A stretch of DNA of 27,763 bases from Nanopusillaceae archaeon (GCA_049974095.1 JBMFJD010000011.1:1-27763), one strand, 5' to 3'. Shown: positions 1 through 27,763, counted from the first letter of the stretch. The notes: a model not told the origin generated them from the letters alone. Made by a program: numbers and translations.

Positions 1-75
1 AATGGAAATGTAGAGCAAATAGTAGATATAAGGCCATGGTGGTGGTTCTTAGTATTTGGCTATAAAGTTCAGTAA
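1..75 (+). CDS. 3' end of an upstream ORF cut by the window edge (…NGNVEQIVDIRPWWWFLVFGYKVQ*)
   Basis: Frame 1 is open from nt 1 to the TAA at 73-75. That stop overlaps the next ATG (TAATG, 73-77). The aromatic/hydrophobic tail resembles the C-terminal anchors of neighbouring glycoproteins. Confidence 0.4.
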   Translation, partial: NGNVEQIVDIRPWWWFLVFGYKVQ

Positions 76-3000
76 TGAAAAAAGCTAAACTATTAGGCGT
101 ATTTTTATTATCTTTATTCTTAGTTAAATCTATCTTCTCTTTTGATCCATCTCAATGGGCAGGTAATTATACAATTTTTATACAAAATAATGCTAATGTA
201 TCTGTATGGAATTATGATTTAATGTATCAATTTAATTCTACTCAATTAATTTCCCAAGGATTATTACAACCTACATGTAATGATATCAGGTTTATTGGTC
301 CAAATGGACAAGAATTAAATTACTATTTAGCCTCATGTGGATATATATCTGTAAATTTATCATATAATACTGGAACATCATGTATATATTTACAAAATAA
401 TCCTGCTTTTCCTGCAACTCCTAACACTCCTTCTGGTTCCTGGTACTTTACTTTTAGTAGCGATGCATATGAAACACTTAATTTATATGAATCTTCAACT
501 ATTGTACCTGTTATATTAAATATTCAAACTAATGCTTTAGTTGCTATATGGGTAAATGGGCAACTAGTATATGAAAATAATCCATTTACTTTCTCATGTA
601 ATGATAATGATGTCGATCAAGTAGATACTTCACAATCATTTGATATTACAAATTATCTACATCAGGGAAATAATGTAATATACATATGGGCAACAGGTAA
701 TTCTCCAGGATTATATATTAATACATCTATTTATTTACCATCAGATAATTTAACAATAAATCAGAATGGAGTATATAATTTACCAGGTATTGTATTTGTA
801 CAAATACCTTACCTTCCAGCATCAGGAAATACATCTATGTATATGTACTATGGTAATCCAAATGCTGTATCTAAAAGTACTTTAAATGCATTTATACAAG
901 GATCTTATCCCGCATTACAAAATTTGATAAATAGTCAATCTCAAGTATTTGCAAATAATTATGACGTATTTGATGTTCAAACTGGTAGTGCATCTAACTT
1001 TGTAGAATTATTACCTCAATACTTTAATAATAGTGGTTCATATTTAGTTCCATTTATAATAAATTCAATAACTGTACCTATAGCAAAAGGATATAACTTT
1101 GTAATACCTGGCTTATCTGTTGGATACTCTTTATTATCTAATATTATATCTACTCAACCATCTAATAATCAGGTTTCTTTTGTAGCACAAAATCAATATT
1201 ATGGTGTATTAAGTGCTGGACAAAATTTAACTATAAATTTGAATACTCCAATATACTGGGTACCTGGATATAATTTAGGAATATATATTGTAAGGGCAGG
1301 AAATCAACAAAAGTATCCAATATGTAAACCATCAGGTGGAACGGGATGTACTGTTTTACCATCAGGAACATATGCAGTACCATTAAATAATGTAGGATTA
1401 GTATCATATTATGGAAATGGACCAGCATATAGTAATTACCCATATTTTGATAAAACTGCATTAGCATTTAATTTACTACCAATATACTATTATAATGGTT
1501 ATTATATGTATTACCTAAATCCAGCTCCTACTTATACTACAATAGTACCTCCACCAATTACAAATACAACTAATGTAACATTAACAAATGGTACTAATTC
1601 TATTGTATTGACAATAAATTATCCATCAAATGGATCTATAGAATACGTAAGTAAAACTAATTATTTACTATATGTAGGATATTCAGTATTATCTAATTAT
1701 ACAATAAATTCATGTAATATATCTATAACATCTGGAAATATAACTTATTATTTCGGAAATTGTTCTACAGCAATTAATGTAAGTGGAATAAATCCTGGTT
1801 GGTATACATTAACAATAAATGTATCTAATATAGCAGGAGGAAATACAACAGCAAATACAATATTTTATTTAGATTATCCTCCAGGTACATATAACTTTAC
1901 AATAGTACAAACTCCAAGTTATATTAATGGAGAATCAGAATATATTAATACATCTTTTGTATGTACAGGTGGAGAATGTGATTATGGATCTGTACAATTA
2001 AATGTACCATCTTATTGTGCTGTATTAAATCCTGTAGTTAATATACCAATGTTAAGTTCTGGACAACAGTATAATGTATCATTCTTAATCGACTGTATAT
2101 ATAATACAAGTTATCCATTTACAATTAACTATTATATAGCTGGAAGTTTAATTAATAGTACATCATTTAGTATACCTCCAGCATCTTTATCAATATCTTA
2201 TACATTATCTACTAATAATCTAACAATTTATGCAAATCCAACAGGATTTTATAATAATGTTACATTATATACAGTAATAAATCAAGGATGGGTAATAAAT
2301 AGTACTGCAAATCAAATTGTATATAATATAACTGTACCTCCAAATCAAAATGATATAATATATACAACAAATGTTACACCTGGACAAACATTTGCTATAT
2401 ATGTAGGAATACAATCTCCTAGTTTATTTACATTCTATCCAGTTCAAAGTATATATCTAGTTGTACAGGCAACTCAACCCCCAATAATATATAGTGCTAC
2501 AATACCTCAAATAAATTACCAGGGGCTACCTGTTAATTTATGTTATAATATAACAGATCAAGTTGCAGTAACCAATGTAACAATTAATTTAATATATAAT
2601 AATGTACAACAAACAATTGTAGAGAATTATTTCTCTCCAAACGTAAGTGCATGTGTACCATTAAATGTAACACAACTAGGTAATTATTCTGTATTATTAC
2701 AAGCATGTGATTATTCGGGATTATGTATTAGCTATCCAACAATTAATTTCCAGGTTGTTCCATACCCACCATATAATATAACAATATATCCAAATACTAC
2801 TATAGTTACGCAATCATCTCCAGTATATGTAACAATTTACTTCTATCATCCATTACAAAATTCTGTTCAGTGTGTTATAACAAATAGCCAAGGAACCTTG
2901 AATTTAAGGGAAACATTATATAATAATACAAATGTAACAGTTCCACTCTCATTTAGTTCATATGGTGTATATAATTTATATCTATCATGTGTATCTCCAT

Positions 3001-3950
3001 ATACAGCAATAACTGTTCCATTTACAATAATATATAGTAATTTACCACCATTAATAGAAGGAATAAATATTACTAATGATACAATAAATCTATATTTGTA
3101 TGATCAAGTTGGATTAGAAGGCGCAATATATAATATTACAATTGGAAATAGTACTCAAATATATAATGTTTCCTTATCTGGTAATTATGGTGTATTGCAA
3201 TTACCTCTTATATTATCTCAATCAGTGATAATAAAAGGATATATCTATGATCTAGCGGGATTATCTACACCATTTACATATTCATATACTTTGGCTCAAC
3301 CAATTGCATTTGGTCCATCACCTGGAACACCTACATATATTGGATATCTAAATGTATCATCTACAAATTCAACAAATATTACAAATATAACAATATCTGG
3401 ATCTCCATCTAATTATATTGCATTATTGATACCAACAATAAATGCTACGGTAATACCTAAAGGTATACAAATAACAGCATCAGTTATTGCTAAATATTAT
3501 CCTGTAAATTGTACAATATACCCATTTAATACAACTATGATAATACAAACATCTGCACCATATACTGCAATAATTACACCAAATATAACACCAGGTACAT
3601 ATATTATATATGCAACCTGTACAGATAGTGTTGGAGATATGGCTACATCAAATATGGTTGTATTAAATGTTACACCTCAAGATATCTATATGTTTGGAAC
3701 ATCTGCATTTGTTGGAACAGAAAATGGAATATATAGTATATTACTATTAGGAGGTGTGGTAGCATTACTTGGATATTTAATGAGATCTAAGATACTTGTT
3801 TTAATTGGAGCTGGATTGGCAGCATCACTTGCACCATTATATACAGGTGTGATATCAGGACAGCCAGTATTTGCAACAATAGAGACAGGAGCGATATTAG
3901 TTGGCTTATATATATTACATAAATATTTATTATATCATGCCTTCGAATAA
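75..3950 (+). CDS. Giant secreted, heavily N-glycosylated surface protein (1291 aa) with a DUF2341-like N-terminal module, nested lectin-like jelly-roll, beta-sandwich repeats and three C-terminal TM helices
   Basis: Uninterrupted 3.9 kb ORF. Signal peptide MKKAKLLGVFLLSLFLVKSIFS|F. About 50 N-x-S/T sequons by manual count. NDIRFIGPNGQELNYYL … VFVQIPYLPASGNTSMYMYYGNPNA matches the DUF2341 hallmark. PGTY-type beta-sandwich motifs recur. The last ~75 aa form three hydrophobic helices. Confidence 0.85.
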   Translation: MKKAKLLGVFLLSLFLVKSIFSFDPSQWAGNYTIFIQNNANVSVWNYDLMYQFNSTQLISQGLLQPTCNDIRFIGPNGQELNYYLASCGYISVNLSYNTGTSCIYLQNNPAFPATPNTPSGSWYFTFSSDAYETLNLYESSTIVPVILNIQTNALVAIWVNGQLVYENNPFTFSCNDNDVDQVDTSQSFDITNYLHQGNNVIYIWATGNSPGLYINTSIYLPSDNLTINQNGVYNLPGIVFVQIPYLPASGNTSMYMYYGNPNAVSKSTLNAFIQGSYPALQNLINSQSQVFANNYDVFDVQTGSASNFVELLPQYFNNSGSYLVPFIINSITVPIAKGYNFVIPGLSVGYSLLSNIISTQPSNNQVSFVAQNQYYGVLSAGQNLTINLNTPIYWVPGYNLGIYIVRAGNQQKYPICKPSGGTGCTVLPSGTYAVPLNNVGLVSYYGNGPAYSNYPYFDKTALAFNLLPIYYYNGYYMYYLNPAPTYTTIVPPPITNTTNVTLTNGTNSIVLTINYPSNGSIEYVSKTNYLLYVGYSVLSNYTINSCNISITSGNITYYFGNCSTAINVSGINPGWYTLTINVSNIAGGNTTANTIFYLDYPPGTYNFTIVQTPSYINGESEYINTSFVCTGGECDYGSVQLNVPSYCAVLNPVVNIPMLSSGQQYNVSFLIDCIYNTSYPFTINYYIAGSLINSTSFSIPPASLSISYTLSTNNLTIYANPTGFYNNVTLYTVINQGWVINSTANQIVYNITVPPNQNDIIYTTNVTPGQTFAIYVGIQSPSLFTFYPVQSIYLVVQATQPPIIYSATIPQINYQGLPVNLCYNITDQVAVTNVTINLIYNNVQQTIVENYFSPNVSACVPLNVTQLGNYSVLLQACDYSGLCISYPTINFQVVPYPPYNITIYPNTTIVTQSSPVYVTIYFYHPLQNSVQCVITNSQGTLNLRETLYNNTNVTVPLSFSSYGVYNLYLSCVSPYTAITVPFTIIYSNLPPLIEGINITNDTINLYLYDQVGLEGAIYNITIGNSTQIYNVSLSGNYGVLQLPLILSQSVIIKGYIYDLAGLSTPFTYSYTLAQPIAFGPSPGTPTYIGYLNVSSTNSTNITNITISGSPSNYIALLIPTINATVIPKGIQITASVIAKYYPVNCTIYPFNTTMIIQTSAPYTAIITPNITPGTYIIYATCTDSVGDMATSNMVVLNVTPQDIYMFGTSAFVGTENGIYSILLLGGVVALLGYLMRSKILVLIGAGLAASLAPLYTGVISGQPVFATIETGAILVGLYILHKYLLYHAFE

Positions 3951-4191
3951 AAAAGATAAAAAAAGAGAGGAAGTAGTTAAGATAATTGTTAAAAAATATA
4001 GATATGCAATGTTGGCGGAATATTTATATAAAAATAGATTAAACAATATTGCAAAATTCTTAGGAGTATCTCCTGAAGAAATTGAAAAGTCAGAAGCTAT
4101 TATTAATTTCTATGATCTGATAAAAGAAAAGAAATTTGAAATGGCTAAAAAATATTTGGATTGGTTGATGAAAAATTATGGAAAGAAATAG
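3937..4191 (+). CDS. Small basic protein (84 aa from ATG 3937), HTH-like, distant paralogue of the 21713-22453 trio
   Basis: The ORF track starts at TTG 3901, but the first ATG is 3937 (MPSNKKDKKREE…), overlapping the upstream stop by 14 nt. The motif NNIAKFLGVSPEEIEKSE resembles KKIAEFLQVSPDVVCQS of ORF 22226. Confidence 0.6.
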   Translation: MPSNKKDKKREEVVKIIVKKYRYAMLAEYLYKNRLNNIAKFLGVSPEEIEKSEAIINFYDLIKEKKFEMAKKYLDWLMKNYGKK

Positions 4192-4906
4192 ATCGATTGG
4201 TCTTGGTATAGATTTAGCAATATTTATCATATCTATAGTAGTACTTGCATATGCATGGTACTTTTTATCAGTATTAATATTACAAGGAGCAGTATTACAA
4301 TCAATAGTTCAATTACAGGAGCAACAACAAATATATCTATACTATATAGCATTAGCTCTTACAGCGATGATATACTATACAGCATCAGCATTATTAGATA
4401 AACCATATTCTCCGACATACCAACATTTATTCAATAAGAAGGAAATGTTCTGGGCTTTGCTATTCATATTAATATACGTACCTGGTTATATTGCTGGATT
4501 AATAAGAATGGGTATACCTCCAATTTTAACTGTAGTATATTCATTACCATTTGCAATCGTTGAGGGTGTAATGGGTTTAGTAGAAAACAGATTCTTTATA
4601 GGAACATTAGGATTTGGTATGAAGTATGAGTTACAGGAAAGAGATATAAGGGGATCCTATATACTAGCTGCAATATTGGTAGGATTAATTGCAACAGCCT
4701 GGCACTTATACATGTTTACTAGTTTATTAATAAACTCAGCATCATTATATGCAGTAATACAGGTAGCAATATCTGTGTTCGTATTCTTCTTCTTTGGTGC
4801 AATAATAAGCTTTGATTATGACAATACCTGGGCATGGGATATAGTACACTTCACTGTTAACTTTGCAGTAGGCTTATTAGGAGCAAAAGGATTTATTATA
4901 ATATGA
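4178..4906 (+). CDS. Polytopic membrane protein, possible CPBP/Abi-type intramembrane metalloprotease
   Basis: About 7 hydrophobic helices and no Cys. Ordered motifs: AIVEGVMGLVENRFF (cf. EExxxR), IATAWHLY (cf. FxxxH) and WDIVHFTVNF (HxxxN). The start overlaps the upstream gene by 14 nt; the stop overlaps the downstream ATG (ATGA). Confidence 0.5.
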   Translation: MERNRSIGLGIDLAIFIISIVVLAYAWYFLSVLILQGAVLQSIVQLQEQQQIYLYYIALALTAMIYYTASALLDKPYSPTYQHLFNKKEMFWALLFILIYVPGYIAGLIRMGIPPILTVVYSLPFAIVEGVMGLVENRFFIGTLGFGMKYELQERDIRGSYILAAILVGLIATAWHLYMFTSLLINSASLYAVIQVAISVFVFFFFGAIISFDYDNTWAWDIVHFTVNFAVGLLGAKGFIII

Positions 4907-6327
4907 AAGGAAGGTTTGGTATAATATTATTGGCTTTACTTATCTTGGGTTTTGTATTACCAATAGTAGTCTATAATGTTTTTGTTTTACATTCATTTAC
5001 GATATCGTGTAGTTATGAATCTAAAACTGTTAACGTTGGAAGTTCGGTAAATTATTTATGTTATGATGTTTATAATTTAACTCAAGGTGATAATATATTT
5101 ACTATTCCATTACCAGGAGCTGGTAATATACTTAGCTCATATATATCATTTATTAATGTTCAAACTCCAACTATAAACATAAATCTATCCGGAACTATAC
5201 CTTCAAATTCTCAACAGGTTCAACAGATATCTATTCCATCTAATGCATATAATATAAATATATATGGAATATTACAAGGTATACCTGTAAATAACCAATA
5301 TCCTTTTAATGCATCAATAACAGGTGGTAATATACCATTATATTGTAGTCCATCATGTATCTATAATCAAGGACTAATAATAAACCAATCTGGATCATAC
5401 CAATTAGTAATAAATTCTGGTTATGGAGGTGGAGGTGTTAATTATGATATATATGGATCATATAATTTACCAAATCCAACATATACAATATCTGTAAATG
5501 GTGTAAATGTATTTTCTGGACAAATAGCGTCTACACAGAGTATACCAATACCTATTAATCAGACATCTACTGTGAATATAAATGTAAATGGATACTCAAA
5601 TGCCCAAGCATTATTCTATATAGAACAAAAATGTTCATTAACAGGAGGATTTTGGAATTGTTCAGCATCCGTAAATCCACAGAATTTGTCTCAATCCCTA
5701 GTAGTATGTACAACTAATGTATATTCTACATGTTCATTATCTAATATTAATATAGAAGTTCCATTTAGTTCAGATTATAGTAAATATCTATCTAATGCAC
5801 AGAATTTAGAAATATCTGTAAATGGAGTTATAGTTAATGCTAATACACAGGGATTATCAAATTCTGCACCTTATTTTATAATATATAATCTAGATCAGGG
5901 AAATAATATAGTACAATTATCATTTACATTACCATATATTGTTCCTCAAGCACAAACACAGGTAGGAGTATGTCTAATATATCCGCCAAGTATTACTATA
6001 TATAGACTATTAAATCAAGCATCAGTAAGTACAACAATATATATTAAGAATACAGGTAATGCACCAATACAGGTAACTATATCTCCATCAGTATCTTTAA
6101 ATGCAAATATACAACCATCTAGTTTAGTAATACAACCAGGAGAGACAGCTAATACAACAGTTACAATAACCGGTGGAAATGGGTATCTTGAAATACAAGG
6201 ATGTTCAGAGATACCATATGATTTGCCGGTATCTGTTCAAGTAATATCATCATCTTTTATAGTATTGATAATAATAGTAGCTGGTTTAGCAGCACTAGTA
6301 TTGATGTTATTTACTAGAGGTAAATGA
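4903..6327 (+). CDS. Secreted N-glycosylated protein (474 aa) with N-terminal signal/anchor, lectin-like module, CARDB-like domain and C-terminal TM anchor
   Basis: N-terminus MKGRFGIILLALLILGFVLPIVV. Many sequons. EISVNGVIVNAN…YFIIYNLDQGNNIVQLSF. IYIKNTGNAPIQVTISPS is a CARDB-like signature. C-terminus FIVLIIIVAGLAALVLMLFTRGK. Confidence 0.8.
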   Translation: MKGRFGIILLALLILGFVLPIVVYNVFVLHSFTISCSYESKTVNVGSSVNYLCYDVYNLTQGDNIFTIPLPGAGNILSSYISFINVQTPTININLSGTIPSNSQQVQQISIPSNAYNINIYGILQGIPVNNQYPFNASITGGNIPLYCSPSCIYNQGLIINQSGSYQLVINSGYGGGGVNYDIYGSYNLPNPTYTISVNGVNVFSGQIASTQSIPIPINQTSTVNINVNGYSNAQALFYIEQKCSLTGGFWNCSASVNPQNLSQSLVVCTTNVYSTCSLSNINIEVPFSSDYSKYLSNAQNLEISVNGVIVNANTQGLSNSAPYFIIYNLDQGNNIVQLSFTLPYIVPQAQTQVGVCLIYPPSITIYRLLNQASVSTTIYIKNTGNAPIQVTISPSVSLNANIQPSSLVIQPGETANTTVTITGGNGYLEIQGCSEIPYDLPVSVQVISSSFIVLIIIVAGLAALVLMLFTRGK

Positions 6328-6749
6328 TCGTAAGATCAAATAATAAATATTTTTATATACAGAATAAAGTAGCTAGAGATATATTAAACAGATTATCTAA
6401 TAAGAAATACTATGATATATCTATATTACAAGATTTAACACAAAAATATAGTAGGAAAAAAATATATGATACTTTAAGATTATTACATAAGCATGGAATT
6501 ATTGAGATTAAGAAAACATATATTGGTAGAATATATTTTAAGAATAAGTCTAAGAGGACTAGGATTTTCGATATTTCTATATCTATAGCTACAATATCAT
6601 CAACCTTAATATATATCTTAGCTCAGCAAATCATAGGTTATTCTCATATATTATCTGTATATGGATTTTTAATAGGTATCTTATCAAGTATTAATATTCT
6701 ATTATTATTATTAATAAGAAGAATATATGACATCTCAATAAGGATATAA
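6324..6749 (+). CDS. Membrane-tethered winged-helix (wHTH) protein, 141 aa
   Basis: ARDILNRLSNKKYYDISILQDLTQKYSRKKIYDTLRLLHKHGIIEIKK…GRIYF has a MarR/PadR-like wHTH pattern. It is followed by two hydrophobic helices (ISIATISSTLIYILAQQII and VYGFLIGILSSINILLLLLI). ATGA overlap with the upstream gene. Confidence 0.6.
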   Translation: MIVRSNNKYFYIQNKVARDILNRLSNKKYYDISILQDLTQKYSRKKIYDTLRLLHKHGIIEIKKTYIGRIYFKNKSKRTRIFDISISIATISSTLIYILAQQIIGYSHILSVYGFLIGILSSINILLLLLIRRIYDISIRI

Positions 6750-6822: not shown

Positions 6823-7908
6823 ATGGTATTGAAAGGCCAAGCAAGAGGTAAGGAGATGGAATATCTATTAGCGGCAGTATTTATGGCATTGATTGGTTAT
6901 GCAATATACCACTATACAGCAACCACACCAACAGCAGTATCACAAGTACAATGTGGTCCAGTATTGGCACAAGTATATGGATTAGCAGGACAATCATTAA
7001 ACTTACCAGCAAAAGTAGTAAACTCATTAAACGGAAAACCAGTATCTGGAGCTAACATATATGTATTTAGCACAGTACCATATGGATGGGGACAATCCCA
7101 AGAATGGACATTAATACCATCAATGTTAGTAGGACAAACACCAGTAGCAACAACTGGATCATTAGGTAATGCAACAATTAGTGTAACAATGCCACAACCA
7201 AATCAAACAGAAACAGAATATATGGTATTAACAGATACAGGATTCTGGTCTGAATTATACACATTATCTGTAGGATATAATCCAAGCATAGCAGCATCTT
7301 CAGCTCAACAATGTATACAATTATTCCCATACTCAACAGTACAAAATATTATGACATCATTAATACAAGTTCAAGCTCAAGATGTATTAAATGGACAATC
7401 ATATACATTGAATAACTTACAAATGGAACCAGTAGGATCATTAATACCATCATTAAGCACACTATCATTCAATGTATCACAAACAGCATATAATGCACAA
7501 TTACAAGCATTCTATGCTGGAATTGTAAGCGGAGGATCATTAAGAGTTACAGGAATTAAATTCTCAGCATTAGGAAACTTACAACAAGAAGGTATACAAC
7601 AATTATCAGTACAAATAACAGCTGGAGGACAAACATTATACCAAGGAGTATTATACAATGCTGCTAACTCCAACTTACCATTAGGAAATGGACAAAATAC
7701 AACATATACAGTTAGCTTAGGAGGAAATACAGGATTAGTTGATTTACCACAAGGAACTACAATACAAATACAAGTATCAGCAGTAGCAAATACTAATACA
7801 AACCAAACAGCAGGATACCTATACTCAGGAGAACAAGTATTACAAGTACAATTCGAATTAGCAGATCCAATGGAAGGCCAACCAATAGCATTCACAGTAA
7901 CAGGATAG
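6823..7908 (+). CDS. Membrane-anchored or secreted beta-rich protein, candidate abundant structural protein (361 aa from ATG 6823; alternative ATG at 6856)
   Basis: The track start 6766 is TTG. In-frame ATGs lie at 6823 (GGAGGT at 6801-6806 upstream) and 6856 (MEYLLAAVFMALIGYAIYHY hydrophobic helix). VVNSLNGKPVSGANIYVF is a CarboxypepD_reg/prealbumin-like motif. Codons are strongly A-ending, with aac/tac preferred. An 8-T tract follows the gene. Confidence 0.75.
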   Translation: MVLKGQARGKEMEYLLAAVFMALIGYAIYHYTATTPTAVSQVQCGPVLAQVYGLAGQSLNLPAKVVNSLNGKPVSGANIYVFSTVPYGWGQSQEWTLIPSMLVGQTPVATTGSLGNATISVTMPQPNQTETEYMVLTDTGFWSELYTLSVGYNPSIAASSAQQCIQLFPYSTVQNIMTSLIQVQAQDVLNGQSYTLNNLQMEPVGSLIPSLSTLSFNVSQTAYNAQLQAFYAGIVSGGSLRVTGIKFSALGNLQQEGIQQLSVQITAGGQTLYQGVLYNAANSNLPLGNGQNTTYTVSLGGNTGLVDLPQGTTIQIQVSAVANTNTNQTAGYLYSGEQVLQVQFELADPMEGQPIAFTVTG

Positions 7909-7956: not shown

Positions 7957-8556
7957 ATGAGATGGGACAAGATAAAAGATAAAATAAAACATTTATTTAA
8001 ACCTGATAAAAAACATGAGAAGTATAATCTATTTTTAGGAGGAGTAGTGTTTGGTATGGGCTTGACAGTAGTTGTATATATATTTGCAGGATATCCATAT
8101 ACTTTGCCATATCTCAAACCATTTGTAGATATTAAACATTTACCACCCGGATCATTAAATTTCATATATACTAATGATTTATCCTATTATTCTGGCGTAT
8201 TGGATACATTATACTTCCAATTTAGTAATACATGGATTTGTAGATATAATAATCCACTTGTAGCAATGCAATATATAGCGGCAAATAAAGCATTCTATAA
8301 TTCGACAATATTCTTTATATTTGATGGTGATCATCTAAGAGTTGCAGTATATTATGATGATAATTTAACTTTCTTTGATGTAACAGACCCAACTTATATA
8401 TTTTATCCAAATGATACAGAGATAATGTCATGTAATATATCTCCAACTTATGGAATTGGAAGTAATTGTACTATAATATATGCAGATGGATTAACCGCCT
8501 ATAATGATCCCACATTAGATGAGTTAGTAGTAAAGGAGGCGTTTCATAGTTCTTGA
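7957..8556 (+). CDS. Type-II-like membrane-anchored protein, 199 aa, unknown function
   Basis: Basic N-terminus MRWDKIKDKIKHLFKPDKKHEK, then the TM helix LFLGGVVFGMGLTVVVYIFAG. The ectodomain carries sequons (NST, NLT, NDT, NIS, NCT). Confidence 0.7.
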   Translation: MRWDKIKDKIKHLFKPDKKHEKYNLFLGGVVFGMGLTVVVYIFAGYPYTLPYLKPFVDIKHLPPGSLNFIYTNDLSYYSGVLDTLYFQFSNTWICRYNNPLVAMQYIAANKAFYNSTIFFIFDGDHLRVAVYYDDNLTFFDVTDPTYIFYPNDTEIMSCNISPTYGIGSNCTIIYADGLTAYNDPTLDELVVKEAFHSS

Positions 8557-17592: not shown

Positions 17593-17603
17593 TATATAAA
17601 AGG
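17591..17603 (+). promoter_or_regulatory. TATA-like box AATATATAAAAGG for operon 17625-20886
   Basis: Its centre is about 28 nt upstream of ATG 17625. Confidence 0.5.
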
Positions 17604-17624
17604 TAGTACAATAATACTATAATT

Positions 17625-20886: not shown

Positions 20887-21573
20887 CTAGTACTCTTCAG
20901 CTAGATCTATATTTTTAGTAGTAACCTCTTTTGTTTTATATATTATGATTGGTATACCTAAATCTTCAAACTTTTTTACTATATTATCTCTAGATACTTT
21001 GTAAAATATAATTCTATCCTCATAGTAAGGATCTTTCAATAATTTGTATCTTCTGAAATTCTCCTTTATCTTATTTATGTATTCCTCTTTAGCAGGAATT
21101 ACAATAGTCCAAAGTGTAATTTTATCCACATATGTTAATATTCTATCCATGACTAATCTAACATGATCTGGTGTTATATCATGGTTTCTTATATATTCGT
21201 ATAATATGTCATCTATAATATCATTAATATCTATCTCGACTATCTTACCAAAATATCCTCCTATTTGTTCCTTCTCTGTAAAAGATATATCCAATAATTC
21301 GGAGTCTCCTGTAGTTAGGTATCTATGTATAGCATATCGTAATCTATATGGGTCGTCTCCTAATACAGTTCTATAATATATATTTTCTAAAGGTGTAAAT
21401 CTACCGCGTATCTCTAATCTAAAACCTGTACCACTTGCACTTCTATATAGTCTAACATTATCCCTACCGAAAATCTTTACAGAATATAATAATGAGGCTG
21501 ATAGTTCTCTATAGTTGTCTATATCTACTGTAATCCTATCAATACAAAATTTGTTTATGTTTGGTACTTCCAT
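20887..21573 (-). CDS. Cytoplasmic protein (228 aa), possible archaeo-eukaryotic primase (AEP)-like replication protein
   Basis: RITVDIDN (hhhDhD, nt 21517-21534), then about 30 aa later SASGTGFRLEI (cf. AEP motif II SGxGxHh, with Arg in place of His; nt 21409-21441), then LGDDPYRLRY. Shares a 22-nt promoter with gene 24491-24799. By-eye motif call only. Confidence 0.35.
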   Translation of the reverse strand: MEVPNINKFCIDRITVDIDNYRELSASLLYSVKIFGRDNVRLYRSASGTGFRLEIRGRFTPLENIYYRTVLGDDPYRLRYAIHRYLTTGDSELLDISFTEKEQIGGYFGKIVEIDINDIIDDILYEYIRNHDITPDHVRLVMDRILTYVDKITLWTIVIPAKEEYINKIKENFRRYKLLKDPYYEDRIIFYKVSRDNIVKKFEDLGIPIIIYKTKEVTTKNIDLAEEY

Positions 21574-21584
21574 GAAAATTATAT

Positions 21585-21606
21585 TATAACAAATATTTAT
21601 ATGTGT
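21585..21606 (-). promoter_or_regulatory. Conserved 22-nt promoter element (minus-strand reading ACACATATAAATATTTGTTATA), copy 1, drives gene 20887-21573
   Basis: Exact 22/22 match with 24810-24831. It ends 11 nt from the ATG, placing the TATAAATA core about 26 nt upstream (leaderless geometry). Confidence 0.65.
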
Positions 21607-21683
21607 AATGGAAATTTAGGGGCTACTAATGTATAAATAATTTTAGAAAAACTATTTTACTTCAAAAAATATAAAGAATAGCT

Positions 21684-21693
21684 TTTTATATAA
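21684..21693 (+). promoter_or_regulatory. TATA-like box TTTTTATATA for paralogue 1
   Basis: Its centre is about 25 nt upstream of ATG 21713. Confidence 0.5.
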
Positions 21694-21712
21694 CCTTCTA
21701 TAATAATATAAT

Positions 21713-21919
21713 ATGGTAAAGACAATGCAAGAAGCAAAAGCCAAATATACAACAAAAATAAGAGCAGCAGGAGATAAATATGCAACTGATGTAGGAGCAT
21801 TCTTGGGAATGGATGTATCAGGATCATTTCCAGTAAGGAATTATAAAGAAGCAGTACAAGCACCAGATATAGCAGATAGATGGGAAAGGGGATATAGATC
21901 AGCTTTCTCAGTCAGATAA
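21713..21919 (+). CDS. Small helical HTH-like protein, paralogue 1 of 3 (68 aa)
   Basis: MVKTMQEAKAKYTTKI…DVGAFLGMDVSG…YKEAVQAPDIADRWERGYRSAF. Own TATA (21684-21693) and a T7 tract downstream. Confidence 0.7.
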   Translation: MVKTMQEAKAKYTTKIRAAGDKYATDVGAFLGMDVSGSFPVRNYKEAVQAPDIADRWERGYRSAFSVR

Positions 21920-21922
21920 ACC

Positions 21923-21932
21923 TTTATATTTT
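21923..21932 (+). promoter_or_regulatory. TATA-like box TTTATATTTT for paralogue 2
   Basis: Its centre is about 26 nt upstream of ATG 21953. It overlaps the T-tract that follows paralogue 1. Confidence 0.45.
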
Positions 21933-21935
21933 TTT
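21929..21935 (+). terminator. Oligo-T (T7) tract after paralogue 1
   Basis: A run of seven T starts 10 nt past the stop. Confidence 0.45.
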
Positions 21936-21952
21936 CCGTTTATATAGTTTTT

Positions 21953-22174
21953 ATGGTTAAAACTATAAAAGATGCAGTAAGAAATTATTATTTGGCTATA
22001 ACAAATCCCAAAACACCTGCTAAGTATATACAAGGTATTGCAAGATTCTTAAATAAACCTGCATCCGAGGTTGCAAAATCCAGAGCTGCAATGAATTATA
22101 TCTCATTTACTTATAATTCTCGTATAGATGCACAAAAATATATACAAGATCTAGAAAAGGCATTCGAAGAATAG
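21953..22174 (+). CDS. Small helical HTH-like protein, paralogue 2 of 3 (73 aa)
   Basis: MVKTIKDAVRNYYLAI…GIARFLNKPASEVAKSR…AQKYIQDLEKAF. Own TATA (21923-21932) and a T5 tract downstream. Confidence 0.7.
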   Translation: MVKTIKDAVRNYYLAITNPKTPAKYIQGIARFLNKPASEVAKSRAAMNYISFTYNSRIDAQKYIQDLEKAFEE

Positions 22175-22181
22175 TTCCATC

Positions 22182-22186
22182 TTTTT
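22182..22186 (+). terminator. Oligo-T (T5) tract after paralogue 2
   Basis: CTTTTTG lies 8 nt past the stop. Confidence 0.35.
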
Positions 22187-22196
22187 GAACTAAAAA

Positions 22197-22207
22197 TTTT
22201 TAATATA
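22197..22207 (+). promoter_or_regulatory. TATA-like box TTTTTAATATA for paralogue 3
   Basis: Its centre is about 24 nt upstream of ATG 22226. Confidence 0.45.
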
Positions 22208-22225
22208 TGAATACAATATCATAAT

Positions 22226-22453
22226 ATGGTAAAGTCACCGGAAGAGGCTATAAAAAAATATGAGGAAGATATAAGATCGCAACAAGCACTCAACAACTAT
22301 TGTAAAAAGATTGCAGAATTCTTGCAAGTATCGCCGGATGTTGTCTGTCAATCATTACCAGCAAAGGATTGGGAGGAAGCAGTAAAGCAATCAGGTATTG
22401 GACAAAGATGGTATGAAGATTATAAAGCAGCTTTCTTATCTAGAAGAGCATAA
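22226..22453 (+). CDS. Small helical HTH-like protein, paralogue 3 of 3 (75 aa)
   Basis: MVKSPEEAIKKYEEDI…KIAEFLQVSPDVVCQS…WEEAVKQSGIGQRWYEDYKAAF. Own TATA (22197-22207) and a T7 tract downstream. Confidence 0.7.
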   Translation: MVKSPEEAIKKYEEDIRSQQALNNYCKKIAEFLQVSPDVVCQSLPAKDWEEAVKQSGIGQRWYEDYKAAFLSRRA

Positions 22454-22506: not shown

Positions 22507-24078
22507 ATGAATAGAAGAATAATATTAGGTCTGTTAATTATAGCATCTGTATTACCAGGAATTTATTCGCAAGTATACTATATAAACGCAACAGCAGGGT
22601 ATTATGTAACCAATTTAACATCATCTCCAACAAGCGTACCAGTAGATGCATCATATGTAACATATGGAAATGTATCTTGGAATAATAACAATTTATGGGT
22701 ATCTGGTAATAATGCATTCTTTGTAGAATTAAATCTTTCCATTGATCCAAACATATATCAAGCTATTATGAATTATGGTGGAATAAGTATTACAGCTTCA
22801 TCTTCTGGAGGTGTAGAAGGATGGGTAAATAACTTTAATAATGTATATAATTATACATTCGCATGTGGTATTGCATCTTCAGGAACTGTTTATGGTCAAA
22901 CATCATCATGTAGTGTAAACAACTTTAATTTATCTGCATATCTACAGTCTGGAAGTAATACAATAATATTATACTGTAATGCTGGGTCTGCTTCTTCACC
23001 TTACTGTAATTTCTATTTAACATTACCTGCAAATGTACAAATAAATATGAATTCTAATATATCAGTACTTTATGAGAACTTAACAGCACCAATAGATACA
23101 TATAACTATACACAGCAAATATGGCAAGTTTATAACACGTCTTACACGGAAACATTTAATTATACTTCACAAATATGGTATGTATATAATGCTTCATATT
23201 TAGAAACAGTACAAAGTAATGACGTAATAACGATGCAGAACTATACAGTAACTACTACAAATAATTCTAAGACAACATCAGTAACTGCGCAAATAACAGG
23301 ATCTCAAGCCTTACCAATATTATTAGTAGCTTATTTAGTTACTCAAAACAATACATTAGTAAATGTTACAAATTATGCACCAACAATAACAATAAATGGT
23401 GTAAGCTATGGAAATACTCCAATAGTTACATTTAATTATCAACCTCCACAAAGTACCTATTATATACAGATAACAGATAATTATCCTCAATATAAGACAG
23501 CAGTATTTATGTTTGCATGGAATCCTCAGCAAATAATAACTGTTGGTCTAGTACCACCATTGGGATCATATTCATATACTATAGGACAACCACAATTATC
23601 ATCATATACAAAAACAGTACAGTTCATATATGGAATACCATTATATCTATTTCCAACTGAAAATGAACAAAATCCAACTGTACCTGTATTGATAAATTTA
23701 CAACAATTATCTAATCAATTAGGAGTAAATATATCGGCACAAGGATTAATTGTAATGCAATATAATCCAATGACAGGAAACTTTAATATGGTACCATACT
23801 TTATTGATCCTAATATACAATATCCATATGCATTGATGTTTGTAAGGGTACCGCAATTCCAAGCAAATGTGCCAACAATACTATATATATTTGTAACAAA
23901 TTCACAATATTCTAACTTCCAACAACCAAATCTAGTATTTAACTTCTTCGTAAACTTCCAAATACCATCATATTATTCATTAATAAATCTATATACAACA
24001 TCTGGAGTAACATATCAACAAACACCATTGGGATTACAAGTTAACCTTAATGGTGGAACCTTATCATTATATACATAA
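22507..24078 (+). CDS. Secreted N-glycosylated protein (523 aa) with lectin-like module, internal 18-aa tandem duplication and C-terminal DUF2341-like module
   Basis: Signal MNRRIILGLLIIASVLPGIYS|QV. GWVNNFNN…FNLSAYLQSGSNTIILYC. YNYTQQIWQVYNTSYTET/FNYTSQIWYVYNASYLET. MVPYFIDPNIQYPYALMFVRVPQFQANVPTILYIFVTNSQY. Confidence 0.85.
   Translation: MNRRIILGLLIIASVLPGIYSQVYYINATAGYYVTNLTSSPTSVPVDASYVTYGNVSWNNNNLWVSGNNAFFVELNLSIDPNIYQAIMNYGGISITASSSGGVEGWVNNFNNVYNYTFACGIASSGTVYGQTSSCSVNNFNLSAYLQSGSNTIILYCNAGSASSPYCNFYLTLPANVQINMNSNISVLYENLTAPIDTYNYTQQIWQVYNTSYTETFNYTSQIWYVYNASYLETVQSNDVITMQNYTVTTTNNSKTTSVTAQITGSQALPILLVAYLVTQNNTLVNVTNYAPTITINGVSYGNTPIVTFNYQPPQSTYYIQITDNYPQYKTAVFMFAWNPQQIITVGLVPPLGSYSYTIGQPQLSSYTKTVQFIYGIPLYLFPTENEQNPTVPVLINLQQLSNQLGVNISAQGLIVMQYNPMTGNFNMVPYFIDPNIQYPYALMFVRVPQFQANVPTILYIFVTNSQYSNFQQPNLVFNFFVNFQIPSYYSLINLYTTSGVTYQQTPLGLQVNLNGGTLSLYT
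23101..23208 (+). repeat. In-frame tandem duplication, 2 x 54 nt (18 aa), inside gene 22507-24078
   Basis: YNYTQQIWQVYNTSYTET (23101-23154) and FNYTSQIWYVYNASYLET (23155-23208). Each unit carries two N-x-S/T sequons. Confidence 0.7.
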
Positions 24079-24494
24079 TGGATCTAGATACCTGTAATAA
24101 AATTGTAGATAATATATCTAAAAGATATAATATAATAGGAAGAGATTGGATACCTGATGGATCATGTGTTGTAAAGATAAGATTACCTGAAAAGTTTAGT
24201 CCTGTAGGAGGAAACATTGAGGTAGACTTTACCTTTGATGAAGTAAATGGGGTAGTATATTCAGATATGAAAGTAATAGTTCCATATAGTGAAAGACTTT
24301 GGATATATTATGCATCAAAGAAACCAACTATGTTTGAAGCGGATGTATATACAACAAAAGAGGATAATAATCTAGTATACAAATTTACTGTTGGAGAGGT
24401 ACATGATTATTCTAATAGTAAAACAAAATATGAGATAATGCAAGGTTGGTTTATAGATGATATGATAAATGGATTAATGATAGAAAAACGTTAA
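24078..24494 (+). CDS. Cytoplasmic protein (138 aa), unknown function; shares an N-terminal motif with ORFs 25066-25494 and 25511-25759
   Basis: TAATG coupling to the upstream glycoprotein gene. CNKIVDNISKRYNIIGRD compares with FQKIMDIIAKSYIRIIRD and CKDIVNKIQGVRLANRD. Confidence 0.65.
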   Translation: MDLDTCNKIVDNISKRYNIIGRDWIPDGSCVVKIRLPEKFSPVGGNIEVDFTFDEVNGVVYSDMKVIVPYSERLWIYYASKKPTMFEADVYTTKEDNNLVYKFTVGEVHDYSNSKTKYEIMQGWFIDDMINGLMIEKR

Positions 24495-24799
24495 GATTCT
24501 AGAGGGTAGAATTTATCCTTTTCTTTTTCATAGAAAGACCTTGCATATGCAACGAAATCTTCAAGGGATAGATTCTTTTCCTTTAATTTTTTGATTAAAT
24601 AACCCTTATATATAAATTGCCAACCTTTTTCCTTTAATTCATTTAATAATTCCTGTTCAAATTGTTCTATCTCTTCACTAATTTTATCCTTATCTTCATT
24701 TGTTTTTACATCACTAGCAGGTTTAATAGATAAAGCTTCCAATATTTTATCTAGTTTAGCACTAATTTCATCAAGATATTTCTTTAGTTCCTCATCCAT
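24491..24799 (-). CDS. Acidic coiled-coil protein (102 aa from ATG 24799)
   Basis: The track start 24817 is TTG and lies inside the conserved promoter 22-mer. The first ATG, at 24799, gives MDEELKKYLDEISAKLDKILEAL… and sits 10 nt from the promoter repeat, matching the geometry at gene 20887-21573. Confidence 0.65.
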   Translation of the reverse strand: MDEELKKYLDEISAKLDKILEALSIKPASDVKTNEDKDKISEEIEQFEQELLNELKEKGWQFIYKGYLIKKLKEKNLSLEDFVAYARSFYEKEKDKFYPLES

Positions 24800-24809
24800 T
24801 AATATATAG

Positions 24810-24831
24810 TATAACAAATATTTATATGTGT
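24810..24831 (-). promoter_or_regulatory. Conserved 22-nt promoter element, copy 2, drives gene 24491-24799
   Basis: Exact repeat of 21585-21606. It ends 10 nt from ATG 24799 and overlaps the stop codon of the upstream zinc-ribbon gene. Confidence 0.65.
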
Positions 24832-25079
24832 TATATCTTATACATTTCTTTTATTCTATTTATTTTTCTATTTCTAATAAAAACGCTTGCTTCTTTAGGA
24901 TTATCAAATTGGGCTATTATTACTTTCCAAGATGGCTCGTCATCCCTTATGATATTAAAGTATTTACCACAATATGGGCATCTCTTTACTTTTTTCTTAC
25001 CTTCTCTGACAGAATCATATAATGATAAGTTTCCGCAGTAAGGACATTCTAAAATCCAATATCTCTTAGAATTTACCAT
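24831..25079 (-). CDS. Zinc-ribbon protein, DUF1922-like (82 aa)
   Basis: YWILECPYCGNLSLY…KKVKRCPYCGKYFNI: two CxxC pairs with the spacing and flanks typical of the archaeal DUF1922 zinc ribbon. 14-nt overlap with the upstream gene. Confidence 0.6.
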   Translation of the reverse strand: MVNSKRYWILECPYCGNLSLYDSVREGKKKVKRCPYCGKYFNIIRDDEPSWKVIIAQFDNPKEASVFIRNRKINRIKEMYKI

Positions 25080-25494
25080 AGAAATCTGTAATTAGATCCT
25101 TAACGTCATCAGCAGTACCTATGTTTTTAACATTAAATGTTACAAGACTCTTAGCAGAATCCATTCCTATTTCACAATAAGCATCTGGATAATCTCTGCA
25201 TTGGTTTGGGAAAACCATTTCGAAATATCCTGATGGAACAATTCTATTAAATGATGCTGATTTTGTAAATCCTAAAATTGGATCGTAGTCTATATATGAA
25301 GATGCAAGCTCAGCTCCTGGTATAGTATTTTTTAGATAATCTGTTGTAGAATCTGTAAACTCTATATGACATACTACTCCTGAAGCAAATCCACCACTCG
25401 ATAATCTTACATCCTTTATTATTATATCTCTGTTTGCTAATCTTACACCTTGTATTTTATTTACTATATCCTTACATTCGTTAGGTATATCCAT
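25066..25494 (-). CDS. Cytoplasmic protein (142 aa), unknown function
   Basis: ATG start, in a minus-strand operon with 25511-25759 and 24831-25079. The N-terminal MDIPNECKDIVNKIQG…NRD motif is shared with 24078-24494. Confidence 0.6.
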   Translation of the reverse strand: MDIPNECKDIVNKIQGVRLANRDIIIKDVRLSSGGFASGVVCHIEFTDSTTDYLKNTIPGAELASSYIDYDPILGFTKSASFNRIVPSGYFEMVFPNQCRDYPDAYCEIGMDSAKSLVTFNVKNIGTADDVKDLITDFYGKF

Positions 25495-25510
25495 AATATA
25501 TAATTTCTTT

Positions 25511-25759
25511 TTATACTATATATATTTTATTATTATTTTCCTTAGATATTATTACTATTACGATATCTTTTATAGCATCTATAGTAATATTATCTTCTGG
25601 TATACCTACCTCTAAAAACATATCATAGAGATATTGAAGTTCATCCCAGCTCATCATACTACCATCAAATATAAATATTATTGTTTCATTGTCTCTTATA
25701 ATTCTAATATAGCTCTTAGCGATAATATCCATTATTTTCTGGAATTCTTTATAGTTCAT
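25511..25759 (-). CDS. Small cytoplasmic protein (82 aa), unknown function
   Basis: First gene of the minus-strand operon, with an AT-rich divergent promoter upstream. Carries the N-terminal KIMDIIAKSYIRIIRD motif. Confidence 0.55.
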   Translation of the reverse strand: MNYKEFQKIMDIIAKSYIRIIRDNETIIFIFDGSMMSWDELQYLYDMFLEVGIPEDNITIDAIKDIVIVIISKENNNKIYIV

Positions 25760-25810: not shown

Positions 25811-26149
25811 ATGAACAATTACAAAATAGGATACTATTATGAAAGGAGAGTAAGAGAGTATTTGGAATCGGGTGGTAAATATATAGTATGGAGAACACCT
25901 GGTTCAAAGTCTCCTATAGATATTATTGCCATAAATAAGGATACAGGAGAGGTATTATTAGTACAGGTTAAGAAGACTGATTATGAATCACCAGATGATA
26001 TATACGATAGGGTAAAAAAAGAATTAGAAGAATTTGCATCATCATTCAAAACAGATAATGTTAAAGTAGAGTTATGGGTATTTTCAAATAGAAGGCTATC
26101 TGTATACTCAATAAATAAAAACAATGGACAAGGAGAACAACAAAGATAG
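25811..26149 (+). CDS. hjc: Hjc-family (PD-(D/E)xK) Holliday junction resolvase homologue, 112 aa, with Q in place of the catalytic E of the ExK motif
   Basis: KIGYYYERRVREYLESGGKYIVWRTPGSKSPIDIIAINKDTGEVLLVQVKK aligns by eye with Sulfolobus Hjc (GSAVERNIV…GFAVVRAPASGS…PDIIA…ILIEMKS). E11, D37 and K54 are conserved. Position 52 is Q (CAG, nt 25964-25966). Confidence 0.75.
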   Translation: MNNYKIGYYYERRVREYLESGGKYIVWRTPGSKSPIDIIAINKDTGEVLLVQVKKTDYESPDDIYDRVKKELEEFASSFKTDNVKVELWVFSNRRLSVYSINKNNGQGEQQR

Positions 26150-26368: not shown

Positions 26369-26388
26369 GTATCTTATATAATATAATT

Positions 26389-27763
26389 ATGGATAAAAGA
26401 AAGATACTTGTATTGTCTCTTTTAGGTTTAGGTATGCTAGGAATACCGGTGTTCTCACAAAATGAATTAACCGTGACGAACATGTCGGTATATACAGTAT
26501 CTGTATTAAACTTTACATATAATGGAACATATGGAGCAAATGTATTTGCTGTAAGTCACTATACTTACAATAATACTCCTTATATTTTAACAGTATTAGG
26601 AACTAATTATCCTATCTCTGTTGATCTATTTAACATTACTGGAGGATTAGTTACATCAGAGAATATTTCTAGTTTAGTACAAAACTTGATGAATCAGGGC
26701 TATTCTCTAGGTAATATATTCATCTATGAATATAATGATACTGCTTATATAGATATACCATTCTACCAATATTCAGGATCATTCTATACAGGTTCATATA
26801 CCGATTTATATTTATACCAAATGACAGTAAATGGTAATAACATTTCATCTCCTCAATTAGTATCTAATGCTACCATAAGTGGAAGCCTATCAAATATTTA
26901 TTTCATAGATACTCCTGAAAATACTCAATATATAATTACAAATAATGGAATATATTCTACAAATGGTACGGCATTATTGTCATTGGCAGCTCCTATAAGT
27001 AGTCTTTATTTACATATTTTACCTACAGAAAGTAATATCTATATGGATTATAGTTATTATATTTATAACAATAATTTCCTATTTTCTCTTGCTGACATAA
27101 ATCTTAATACTGGTCAACTTTATATATTTTACAATAATACGAATACTTTATATGGATTTACAGTATTTGTATCAACATATTATCCAAACGATTCTGCAAT
27201 CGCTGTAGATACTCCAGATTGGAATGATCTTATTGTAAATACTACTATGTATAGTTTATCTTCAACTTTCTGTACTACATTCGGTGGAGAACCTGCATAT
27301 ATATATAATAATTATCTTGGAATGTTTAGTAACTATCCAAATGTTACTATAACATTCAATATTTTCAATATTACTAATAATACCTTATATTGTTTTCCAT
27401 ACTCTTATAATGGTTCTATCGAGTTTATAATACCAAATCTATCCATGAGTATTCCTATTACATCTGTAATATATTCTGTAACACCAATTTATTATAATGG
27501 TTCCGATATATTCTTATTAGTTCCTTTAATAGACTCGGGATATCTATTTGATTTCAATTTAACAAATATTACAGTAGGTTATAATAACTTCACAGGTTCA
27601 TGTACAGCAGATAACTATTTAATATCATGTTCAAATAATGGAGAAACTGATATATATGTAGTATCTGGACAACCATTAACTCCAACCCCTACACAAATTT
27701 ATTATAGCCTTATTAACCAATATGCATGTTATCCACAACAATTTAATTATACTAACTTTACAG
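26389..27763 (+). CDS. 5' part (458 codons) of another secreted N-glycosylated protein, open to the window end; not in the supplied ORF track
   Basis: My own translation from ATG 26389 has no stop through nt 27763. Signal peptide MDKRKILVLSLLGLGMLGIPVFS|QN. Many sequons. Blade-like repeats (IYFIDTPENTQYIITNNG, LADINLNTGQLYIFYN) suggest a beta-propeller. A TATA-like box lies about 26 nt upstream. Confidence 0.75.
   Translation, partial: MDKRKILVLSLLGLGMLGIPVFSQNELTVTNMSVYTVSVLNFTYNGTYGANVFAVSHYTYNNTPYILTVLGTNYPISVDLFNITGGLVTSENISSLVQNLMNQGYSLGNIFIYEYNDTAYIDIPFYQYSGSFYTGSYTDLYLYQMTVNGNNISSPQLVSNATISGSLSNIYFIDTPENTQYIITNNGIYSTNGTALLSLAAPISSLYLHILPTESNIYMDYSYYIYNNNFLFSLADINLNTGQLYIFYNNTNTLYGFTVFVSTYYPNDSAIAVDTPDWNDLIVNTTMYSLSSTFCTTFGGEPAYIYNNYLGMFSNYPNVTITFNIFNITNNTLYCFPYSYNGSIEFIIPNLSMSIPITSVIYSVTPIYYNGSDIFLLVPLIDSGYLFDFNLTNITVGYNNFTGSCTADNYLISCSNNGETDIYVVSGQPLTPTPTQIYYSLINQYACYPQQFNYTNFT

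Follow-up and report, generated by a model that had tools for sequence, protein, structure and literature searches.

The 27,763-nt stretch analysed here (GCA_049974095.1, JBMFJD010000011.1:1-27763), hereafter the window, may be the larger part of an autonomous mobile element of hot-spring Nanopusillaceae, most likely a virus with a membrane/glycoprotein particle; to this reading, drawn from sequence, a probability of about 0.45-0.5 is assigned. The window is an entire contig of the NCBI metagenome-assembled genome (MAG) "Nanopusillaceae archaeon", whose habitat is terrestrial hot springs, and carries the locus tags ACP5GJ_03780 to _03925, the last gene being annotated as partial. A mobile-element-like unit, rather than ordinary chromosome, is supported, and the family to which it belongs is very probably new to the collections searched. 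The mobile-element character follows from the lack of housekeeping and tRNA genes, from the confinement of the homologues to few contigs, from the presence of three divergent copies in one MAG and from the exchange of accessory genes between relatives.

The known sequence was extended by a JGI contig (3300041912 Ga0453806_37478; 28,702 bp), which is 99.8% identical to the window over 24,172 nt, with 48 mismatches, begins at window position 3592 and reaches 4,530 bp past the right end. The extension completes a 764-aa gene and contributes a further six small genes, among them one for a winged helix-turn-helix (wHTH)/UPF0175 protein. The resulting composite measures 32.3 kb and contains ~36 genes; the element is thus larger than 32 kb, and a variant of its right arm suggests a size above 33 kb. 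The window is AT-rich (27-35% GC per kb), with a coding density of ~96% and many gene overlaps of 1-14 nt. Convergent genes, reported in an initial annotation of the window to share stop codons, do so at 24078-24494 (+) and 24491-24817 (-), where the stops overlap in TTAA, while the pair 18163-20886 (+) and 20887-21573 (-) merely abuts as TAGCTA. The 48 differences from the JGI contig are not evenly spread and sit in patches (8193-8257, 14098-14214, 21829-21888 and 23976-24465), a pattern expected from recombination between co-occurring variants.

No tRNA was detected in the window or in seven related loci, no Rfam family in the window and no ribosomal or metabolic Pfam domain among the window proteins, in agreement with the initial annotation, which had described tRNA, rRNA, ribosomal and metabolic genes as missing. 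Embedding among housekeeping genes, which it had regarded as the finding that would speak against an element, was not seen: neither housekeeping genes nor tRNAs occur in the ~32.3 kb, or in three related contigs of 28-46 kb, of which ~20-21 kb each were examined, and no flanking core genes were seen at the loci examined, the neighbours in one relative, L017, being divergent. The same results bear on the alternative of an ordinary, non-mobile chromosomal region of Nanopusillaceae, dedicated to surface proteins and with a few selfish genes nearby. It would agree with the binning in a Nanopusillaceae MAG, with the uniform composition, and with the location of one relative copy on a 59.9-kb contig, which exceeds the element as known so far. 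Nanopusillaceae genomes are roughly 0.6 Mb in size and dense in core genes; 32 kb and related loci free of housekeeping genes and tRNAs would be out of keeping with such a lineage, no homologue of the large and core proteins was found outside these contigs, and three copies in one MAG would, by simple arithmetic, occupy more than 15% of a ~0.6-Mb genome. This alternative is disfavoured and very improbable.

Homologues were counted in a set of 5.8 billion proteins. The MCM-type helicase of the element (mini-MCM) is represented by 26 metagenomic protein clusters, its 361-aa protein by 8 and its 963-aa protein by 6, none of them from cultured archaea. Homologues of the element genes are confined to a handful of hot-spring metagenome contigs, including the following:

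WOZZ01055038.1 (L010), 31 kb: MCM identity 83%; conserved block with identical gene set and order
Contig from JGI 3300039096 (L016), 28 kb: MCM identity 53%; conserved block with identical gene set and order
ENA contig (L017), 45.7 kb: MCM identity 42%; homologues of the MCM, of the 228-aa protein, of the MarR-type regulator and of the 963-, 725- and 199-aa proteins, and an MVK protein

The genes of the large proteins correspond one-to-one and in the same order in relatives with as little as 53% MCM identity, and in part also at 42%. Three divergent copies, with MCM identities of 100%, 79% and 55%, are located on separate contigs of one MAG, the two further ones on contigs of 59,894 bp (79%) and 10,084 bp (55%). 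Pieces of the family are found in two distinct Nanopusillaceae MAGs, with the tag prefixes ACP5GJ and ACP5G1. Fragments 99.7-100% identical were found in run SRR6344961 and in a metagenome from Uzon Caldera (Kamchatka), the latter contributing fragments at 99.7-99.8% identity. No relative was found among GTDB representatives; three queries (MCM, 228-aa protein and Hjc-like nuclease) gave only distant MCM matches in PLSDB (72,556 plasmids), and matches in virus collections were likewise restricted to distant MCM.

Accessory genes differ between relatives. Those encoding enzymes are single, different and located at variable positions: a ParB_N/SerK-like gene (L010 1249-1665), a cysteine-synthase-like PALP enzyme (L016 3566-4450), a GT4 glycosyltransferase in the WOZZ variant of the right arm (L025 6047-7315) and a radical-SAM/SPASM maturase (L017 1384-2607). 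At 16193-20370, L017 also encodes a 435-aa PriS/PriL-like fusion and a further MCM-like protein, of 891 aa. Both score ~40 bits against curated cut-offs of ~140-940, and are therefore better seen as divergent element-type genes, which would give that lineage a more extensive replication module. The hypothesis of an element in L017 with cellular neighbours, a primase and a full-length MCM, was rejected on these scores, the primase gene also overlapping an element gene by 23 nt; the low scores of these cellular-looking neighbours speak, in turn, against a chromosomal origin.

Eleven open reading frames (ORFs), to which signal peptides or anchors had been assigned in the initial annotation, are all present and sum to 18,565 of the 27,763 nt (66.9%, from ORF coordinates), matching the "two thirds" given there. 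They are listed below, together with the remaining membrane and small conserved proteins interspersed among them; TM stands for transmembrane.

75-3950, + strand: 1291-aa predicted exported glycoprotein; Sec-like signal peptide, DUF2341, two C-terminal TM helices
4178-4906, + strand: 242-aa polytopic membrane protein, ~5 TM helices; no Pfam or PHROG match
4903-6327, + strand: 474-aa type I membrane protein; signal peptide, C-terminal TM helix, basic tail
6823-7908, + strand: 361-aa protein; N-terminal hydrophobic helix and beta-sandwich C-terminal domain
7957-8556, + strand: 199-aa protein with type II membrane anchor, sequon-enriched; homologues in L010, L016 and L017
8677-10854, + strand: 725-aa exported protein; homologues in L010, L016 and L017
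10847-13738, + strand: 963-aa predicted type I membrane glycoprotein with Cys-rich centre; homologues in this element family only
13795-14235, + strand: 146-aa A/V/G-rich protein, ~4 TM helices; no family match
14255-15612, + strand: three conserved small genes of 236 aa (3 TM), 111 aa (soluble, 4 Cys) and 91 aa (2-3 TM); 54-60% identity in L016
16796-17086, + strand: 96-aa anchored or secreted protein with 4 invariant Cys
17625-18170, + strand: 181-aa protein with N-terminal anchor
18163-20886, + strand: 907-aa type I membrane protein; 44% identity in L016
22507-24078, + strand: 523-aa predicted exported glycoprotein; sub-threshold DUF2341 match
26389-27763, + strand: 5' part (458 codons) of a 764-aa predicted exported glycoprotein, complete in the JGI contig

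Signal peptides and TM helices were called by a hydropathy scan. An N-terminal hydrophobic segment was detected in 10 of the 11 ORFs; the 361-aa protein falls under the threshold, yet a long N-terminal helix is present in its structural model. The Sec-like signal peptides of the large proteins end in xFS, before Q or A. A C-terminal TM helix is found in the 1291-, 474-, 963- and 907-aa proteins, followed in the last three by a short basic tail. For the N-x-S/T sequons, described in the initial annotation as very dense, the large proteins show a density of 1.4-4.7 per 100 aa; sequon numbers were evaluated by a shuffle test on each protein's own composition. The description holds for five proteins only, where an excess over expectation was found: 1291 aa (53 observed, 25 expected, z 6.6), 764 aa (36 and 17, z 5.7), 963 aa (27 and 14, z 4.0), 199 aa (5 and 1.6, z 3.1) and 523 aa (17 and 11.5, z 2.0). 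The other six (474, 725, 907, 361, 181 and 96 aa) stay at composition level, with z below 1.5.

The DUF2341 match of the 1291-aa protein reaches 24.1 bits, against a Pfam cut-off of 23.4, and the 474-aa protein has a sub-threshold match to the Ig/PapD-like Cep192_D3. The 361-aa protein is encoded by the most conserved non-replication gene (63% identity in L016); its AF2 model is confident at residues 195-361 only, and Foldseek matched it, with weak scores, to generic sandwiches of adhesins, pilins, cannulae and tail fibres. A type IV pilin nature, or class III signal peptide, was considered for the 96-aa and 361-aa proteins and rejected, since the RG motif is not conserved and no pilin HMM matched. 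In the 963-aa protein ~23 Cys are invariant down to 23% identity (alignment A8), which would imply a disulfide-rich extracellular core. The 146-aa protein is a candidate membrane or matrix component. The 236-aa ORF (14255-14965) is intact in the window, L002, L010 and L016; in the JGI contig, where one mismatch occurs at 14458, it is called as 133 aa plus a 59-aa gene on the opposite strand.

No paralogy was found among the large proteins. The conserved syntenic block comprises at least eight non-paralogous exported proteins and several polytopic membrane proteins, those of 242, 146, 236 and 91 aa being interspersed among the exported ones. Being non-paralogous and one-to-one in order, the large proteins are more easily reconciled with components of a single assembly than with an adhesin repertoire able to expand, and the earlier expression "adhesin-like repertoire" proved imprecise in this respect.

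The nature of these proteins is central to a further alternative, in which the element is a non-viral plasmid or integrative island equipped with a mini-MCM module, its glycosylated proteins remodelling the nanoarchaeal surface, e.g. for attachment to Crenarchaeota, and the DNA never being self-packaged. Several domains are typical of cell surfaces, namely DUF2341, the sub-threshold Ig/PapD-like match and the PKD/Big_7 domains carried by L017; the 361-aa protein, with its N-terminal helix, beta-sandwich and weak pilin/adhesin matches, would be at home there as well, and nanoarchaeal surface proteins are fast-evolving and heavily glycosylated (PMC6142677). A ParB_N-like gene in the relative L010 would suit a plasmid, and no virion hallmark was detected by any method used. 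Nevertheless, no conjugation gene was found by Pfam, PHROGs and NCBIfam scans and no integrase domain by Pfam and PHROGs over all ORFs, and the window copy has no partition gene. In addition, eight non-paralogous syntenic proteins taking up two thirds of the coding capacity would be unusual as cargo and look more like a morphogenetic module, and three divergent versions share one bin. A plasmid or island, the principal competitor of the viral reading, is held unlikely, though less so than a chromosomal region. Defence genes were not detected either (PADLOC).

The second group of genes on which the viral interpretation relies is related to replication and recombination:

15599-16756, - strand: mini-MCM AAA+ helicase, 385 aa (Pfam MCM PF00493, E 1.1e-19, 70.9 bits)
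20887-21573, - strand: 228-aa enzyme-like protein with DxD … SxxG … DD…R motifs; putative primase-polymerase-like replication protein
25811-26149, + strand: Hjc/Mrr-type PD-(D/E)xK nuclease, 112 aa (Pfam Hjc PF01870)

Cellular MCM proteins are ~650-700 aa long and have an N-terminal OB-fold/zinc domain. The mini-MCM has no MCM_N, MCM_OB or lid match and scores 45.8 bits against an NCBIfam cut-off of 940. Its Walker A (GDPGTGKT), Walker B (CIDEADK) and arginine finger (LDRFDL) motifs are invariant in 20 homologues, the invariant residues including K163, D215/E216 and R270. Its Walker A motif is the sole one in a substantial ORF across the 32.3 kb, one chance match lying in a 34-codon ORF. The Hjc-like nuclease scores 27.4 bits against a Pfam cut-off of 21.1 (E 3e-6), and matches PHROG 6591, Holliday junction resolvase, with E 1.4e-6. 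The relevant residues are E11, D37 and Q52-x-K54, where Q52, invariant in three homologues, takes the place of the second catalytic glutamate of Hjc; the D…QxK signature would correspond to an Mrr-like pattern.

The 228-aa protein, 63% identical in L016, is conserved as well as any gene of the element and has 39 remote homologues of like length. The family consensus (alignment A5, 35 homologues) is IxIDID / SxSGxGFHIxI / DDPxR and resembles motifs I-III of the archaeo-eukaryotic primases (AEP); motif II of the window protein is SGTGFR, the H being replaced by R. The AF2 model (pLDDT 92.7) contains two alpha/beta modules, for which Foldseek found ferredoxin-like folds only, with E above 5e-3. 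No Pfam, NCBIfam or PHROG match was obtained for the protein; one of the 35 homologues matches AEP-TOTE (E 0.009), the PDB profile search gave a non-significant E of ~1.2 with the NrS-1 primase, and hhalign a probability of 0.1% with the pRN1 ORF904 prim-pol. The AEP fold was thus not confirmed by fold search, hhalign or profile matches, and for this reason "primase-like" is kept as a hypothesis. Of the replication/recombination set listed in the initial annotation, the mini-MCM (E 1e-19) and the Hjc-like nuclease (above cut-off) were upheld, whereas "AEP-like" finds its basis in the motifs only.

Within the viral interpretation, the element could tentatively be assigned to a new family of capsid-less, envelope/glycoprotein-based viruses, or self-packaging plasmid-vesicle elements, parasitising Nanoarchaeota, in turn ectoparasites on other archaea. 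In such a capsid-less scheme, the ~8 conserved glycoproteins might provide particle surface, attachment and fusion, and the DxD/SxxG family might constitute the replisome with the mini-MCM, an attribution made with similar caution. After entry, the DNA would be replicated by the mini-MCM and the putative 228-aa primase, and junctions would be resolved by the Hjc-like nuclease. The Sec and N-glycosylation machinery of the host would place the large proteins into the cell membrane, and the DNA would leave in a membrane-derived particle studded with glycoproteins, whose DUF2341, Ig-like and Cys-rich ectodomains would mediate binding to a new cell through its glycosylated surface.

A number of results weigh against a virus. 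No capsid, portal or terminase was found by Pfam, PHROGs, NCBIfam, a tblastn search of 50,697 virus records with 17 proteins, or one structure prediction, consistently with the initial annotation, which had recognised no capsid, packaging or integration genes. The 361-aa protein, the sole structural candidate modelled, gave no capsid fold with Foldseek, and the surface proteins resemble cellular adhesins and pilins as much as virion proteins. The mini-MCM is the only ATPase, no second P-loop ATPase being found in the 32.3 kb. The tblastn search, performed on INPHARED with 16 concatenated proteins plus the MCM, revealed no relative, and no family member was retrieved from IMG/VR with profiles of the MCM and of the 361-, 228- and 963-aa proteins. 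Circularity and terminal repeats, which the initial annotation had suggested looking for, were evaluated by BLAST of head against tail of the 32.3-kb composite: neither terminal repeats nor circular closure were detected, and the right-arm variant L025 does not overlap the left end, so that the composite could not be closed. Finally, the assignment to a nanoarchaeal host derives from binning and co-occurrence only. Of the two possibilities originally proposed, a new archaeal virus family or a mobile adhesion island, the mobile-element character common to both is thus sustained; a virus, for which no capsid fold, closure or close match in virus collections was found, is the more probable of the two, and the adhesion island the less probable.

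On that evidence the host is probably a member of the Nanopusillaceae (Nanoarchaeota), a lineage of tiny ectosymbionts attached to other archaea, and the earlier suggestion of an "AT-rich thermoacidophile or its ectosymbiont" fits the binning. Alternatively, a different low-GC archaeon of hot springs, e.g. one of the Thermoproteota, could be the host of the virus or plasmid, which would then have been co-binned by composition; this would change the host only and is compatible with either a virus or a plasmid. Many crenarchaeal viruses are equally AT-rich, and the MAG appears oversized, to judge from locus tags that reach gene 874 or beyond, both of which would suit such an origin, as would the nature of the link to Nanopusillaceae. 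Yet pieces of the family occur in the two Nanopusillaceae MAGs mentioned above, and beyond the distant MCM matches no likeness to sequenced crenarchaeal viruses or plasmids was found; a different host is accordingly considered improbable. In the study behind the matching Uzon Caldera metagenome, Ca. Nanobsidianus stetteri has been reported among the most abundant rpS3 types in KAM3811, one of two sampled Kamchatka springs (PMC11145796).

By biology, the closest known system is NAV1, set beside the element by description only. NAV1, reportedly described by Munson-McGee, Rooney and Young in J Virol in 2020, is said to be a virus of Yellowstone Nanoarchaeota with a circular genome of 35.6 kb and 52 ORFs. 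Compared in this way, the two have in common the host phylum, as proposed here, the terrestrial hot-spring habitat and a similar size (35.6 versus more than 32-33 kb). A glycosyltransferase is encoded both by NAV1 (PMC11437934) and by the WOZZ right-arm variant of the element. They differ in gene number, 52 ORFs as reported for NAV1 against ~36 genes in 32.3 kb, the low number being due to the giant ORFs of the element. Beyond the distant MCM matches, no record of the phage/archaeal-virus collection was matched by the 17 element proteins, and the glycosyltransferase query did not retrieve NAV1. A 35.5-kb contig of P0024, considered as NAV1-like, was rejected, being an unrelated element of many small genes with the MCM alone in common.

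By mechanism, the closest systems appear to be, by analogy, MCM-bearing archaeal elements and the capsid-less pleolipovirus/plasmid-vesicle systems. The former, including Haloferax tailed virus 1, Haloarcula tailed virus 3, an Altiarchaeum virus and plasmids of Methanocaldococcus and haloarchaea, likewise encode their own MCM-family AAA+ replicative helicase, but the ATPase cores are only 24-32% identical, the protein has here a 385-aa mini form and no other gene is in common. Pleolipoviridae and plasmid-vesicle elements, for which a pleolipovirus morphogenetic module has been described (bioRxiv 10.1101/2025.02.15.638363), resemble the element in the lack of a capsid gene, in spike-like proteins with signal peptide and C-terminal anchor, in polytopic membrane proteins and in a single AAA+ ATPase. 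The genome of the element is, however, three to four times larger, a single spike is replaced by eight or more large exported proteins, and no homologue of VP3 matrix, VP4 spike or the ORF6/ORF7 module was found by PHROGs or tblastn for the membrane and exported proteins. Finally, fast-evolving "hypothetical external" surface proteins, N-terminally anchored or exported, have been described in Nanoarchaeota, ectosymbionts with heavy surface glycosylation (Jarett et al. 2018, PMC6142677); those are encoded by chromosomal genes, whereas the proteins studied here lie among genes of self-replicating type, without core genes or outside homologues.

The left end of the element was searched in several ways. 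Two ENA contigs (L021 1-104 and L024 1-154) lengthen the upstream ORF by 104 and ~80 nt, respectively. An exact-pattern scan of viral contigs gave no match, a GTDB scan with the 1291-aa protein gave DUF2341 motif matches in unrelated MAGs only, and a metagenome scan gave four short contigs. Three independent assemblies, the MAG contig and two ENA contigs, break within ~154 nt of one point, left of the 1291-aa gene and inside the C-terminal coding part of the upstream ORF; WOZZ01055038.1 is, by estimate, a fourth one breaking there. The simplest explanation for the repeated break left of position 1 is a segment, repeated or hypervariable, that co-occurring variants have in common.

The remaining features of the window are mostly regulators and small genes:

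1-72, + strand: 3' end of the upstream ORF, terminating in …IRPWWWFLVFGYKVQ and a stop; the element continues leftward
3937-4191, + strand: fourth MVK paralogue, 84 aa, small helical, with the HTH-like motif IAxFLGVSxxxV
6324-6749, + strand: 141-aa protein with soluble N-terminal half followed by two TM helices
17083-17592, + strand: MarR-type winged-helix regulator, 169 aa (Pfam MarR_2, E 1e-6)
21574-21712, unstranded: divergent promoter region holding the 18-nt motif TATAACAAATATTTATAT
21713-22453, + strand: three tandem MVK family paralogues of 68-75 aa, each with its own TATA-like box
24078-25759, both strands: variable block of small cytoplasmic genes of 138 aa (+), 108 aa (-), 82 aa (-, zinc ribbon), 142 aa (-) and 82 aa (-)

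The wHTH/HTH proteins and zinc ribbon of the initial annotation were recovered by Pfam in the case of the MarR-type regulator, which has a homologue in L017, and of the zinc ribbon; the 141-aa protein, read there as a wHTH, has no significant Pfam match. In the variable block, the genes of the 82-aa zinc ribbon, the 142-aa and the other 82-aa protein have no counterpart in L010, which carries there a ParB_N-like gene and a second 138-aa paralogue. Upstream of each tandem MVK gene the TATA-like box lies ~27 nt 5' of the ATG, i.e. at leaderless distance. The 84-aa protein, called with the same length in the JGI contig, aligns to the MVK family (alignment A3) with an hhalign probability of 93.5% and E 2e-7, and the HTH-like motif is common to all four paralogues. 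A role of MVK proteins as capsid or nucleoproteins was considered and rejected, no PDB or PHROG relative being found; the motif and the fourth paralogue suggest DNA-binding regulators instead. The motif TATAACAAATATTTATAT is AT-rich, with a palindromic core AAATATTT, and occurs in two exact copies (21585-21602 and 24810-24827) and six weaker sites. Allowing up to 3 mismatches, 8 matches were found where ~2 would be expected. Several of them, with the two exact copies among these, are located directly 5' of gene starts. The motif may be an operator for the wHTH proteins of the element.

To our knowledge, a single nanoarchaeal virus has been described so far, and DPANN archaea in general have yielded very few known mobile elements. 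The conserved family reported here exceeds 32 kb, two thirds of which encode predicted exported glycoproteins, and has no match in virus or plasmid collections beyond distant MCM. The 228-aa family, conserved, located near the mini-MCM and with a well-folded model, offers a tractable biochemical target. The element may provide a handle on nested parasitism, i.e. on how parasites of ectosymbionts work, on the form of virions or transfer vehicles without a known capsid fold, and on a possible influence of mobile elements on the nanoarchaeal cell surface, which determines the hosts available for attachment.

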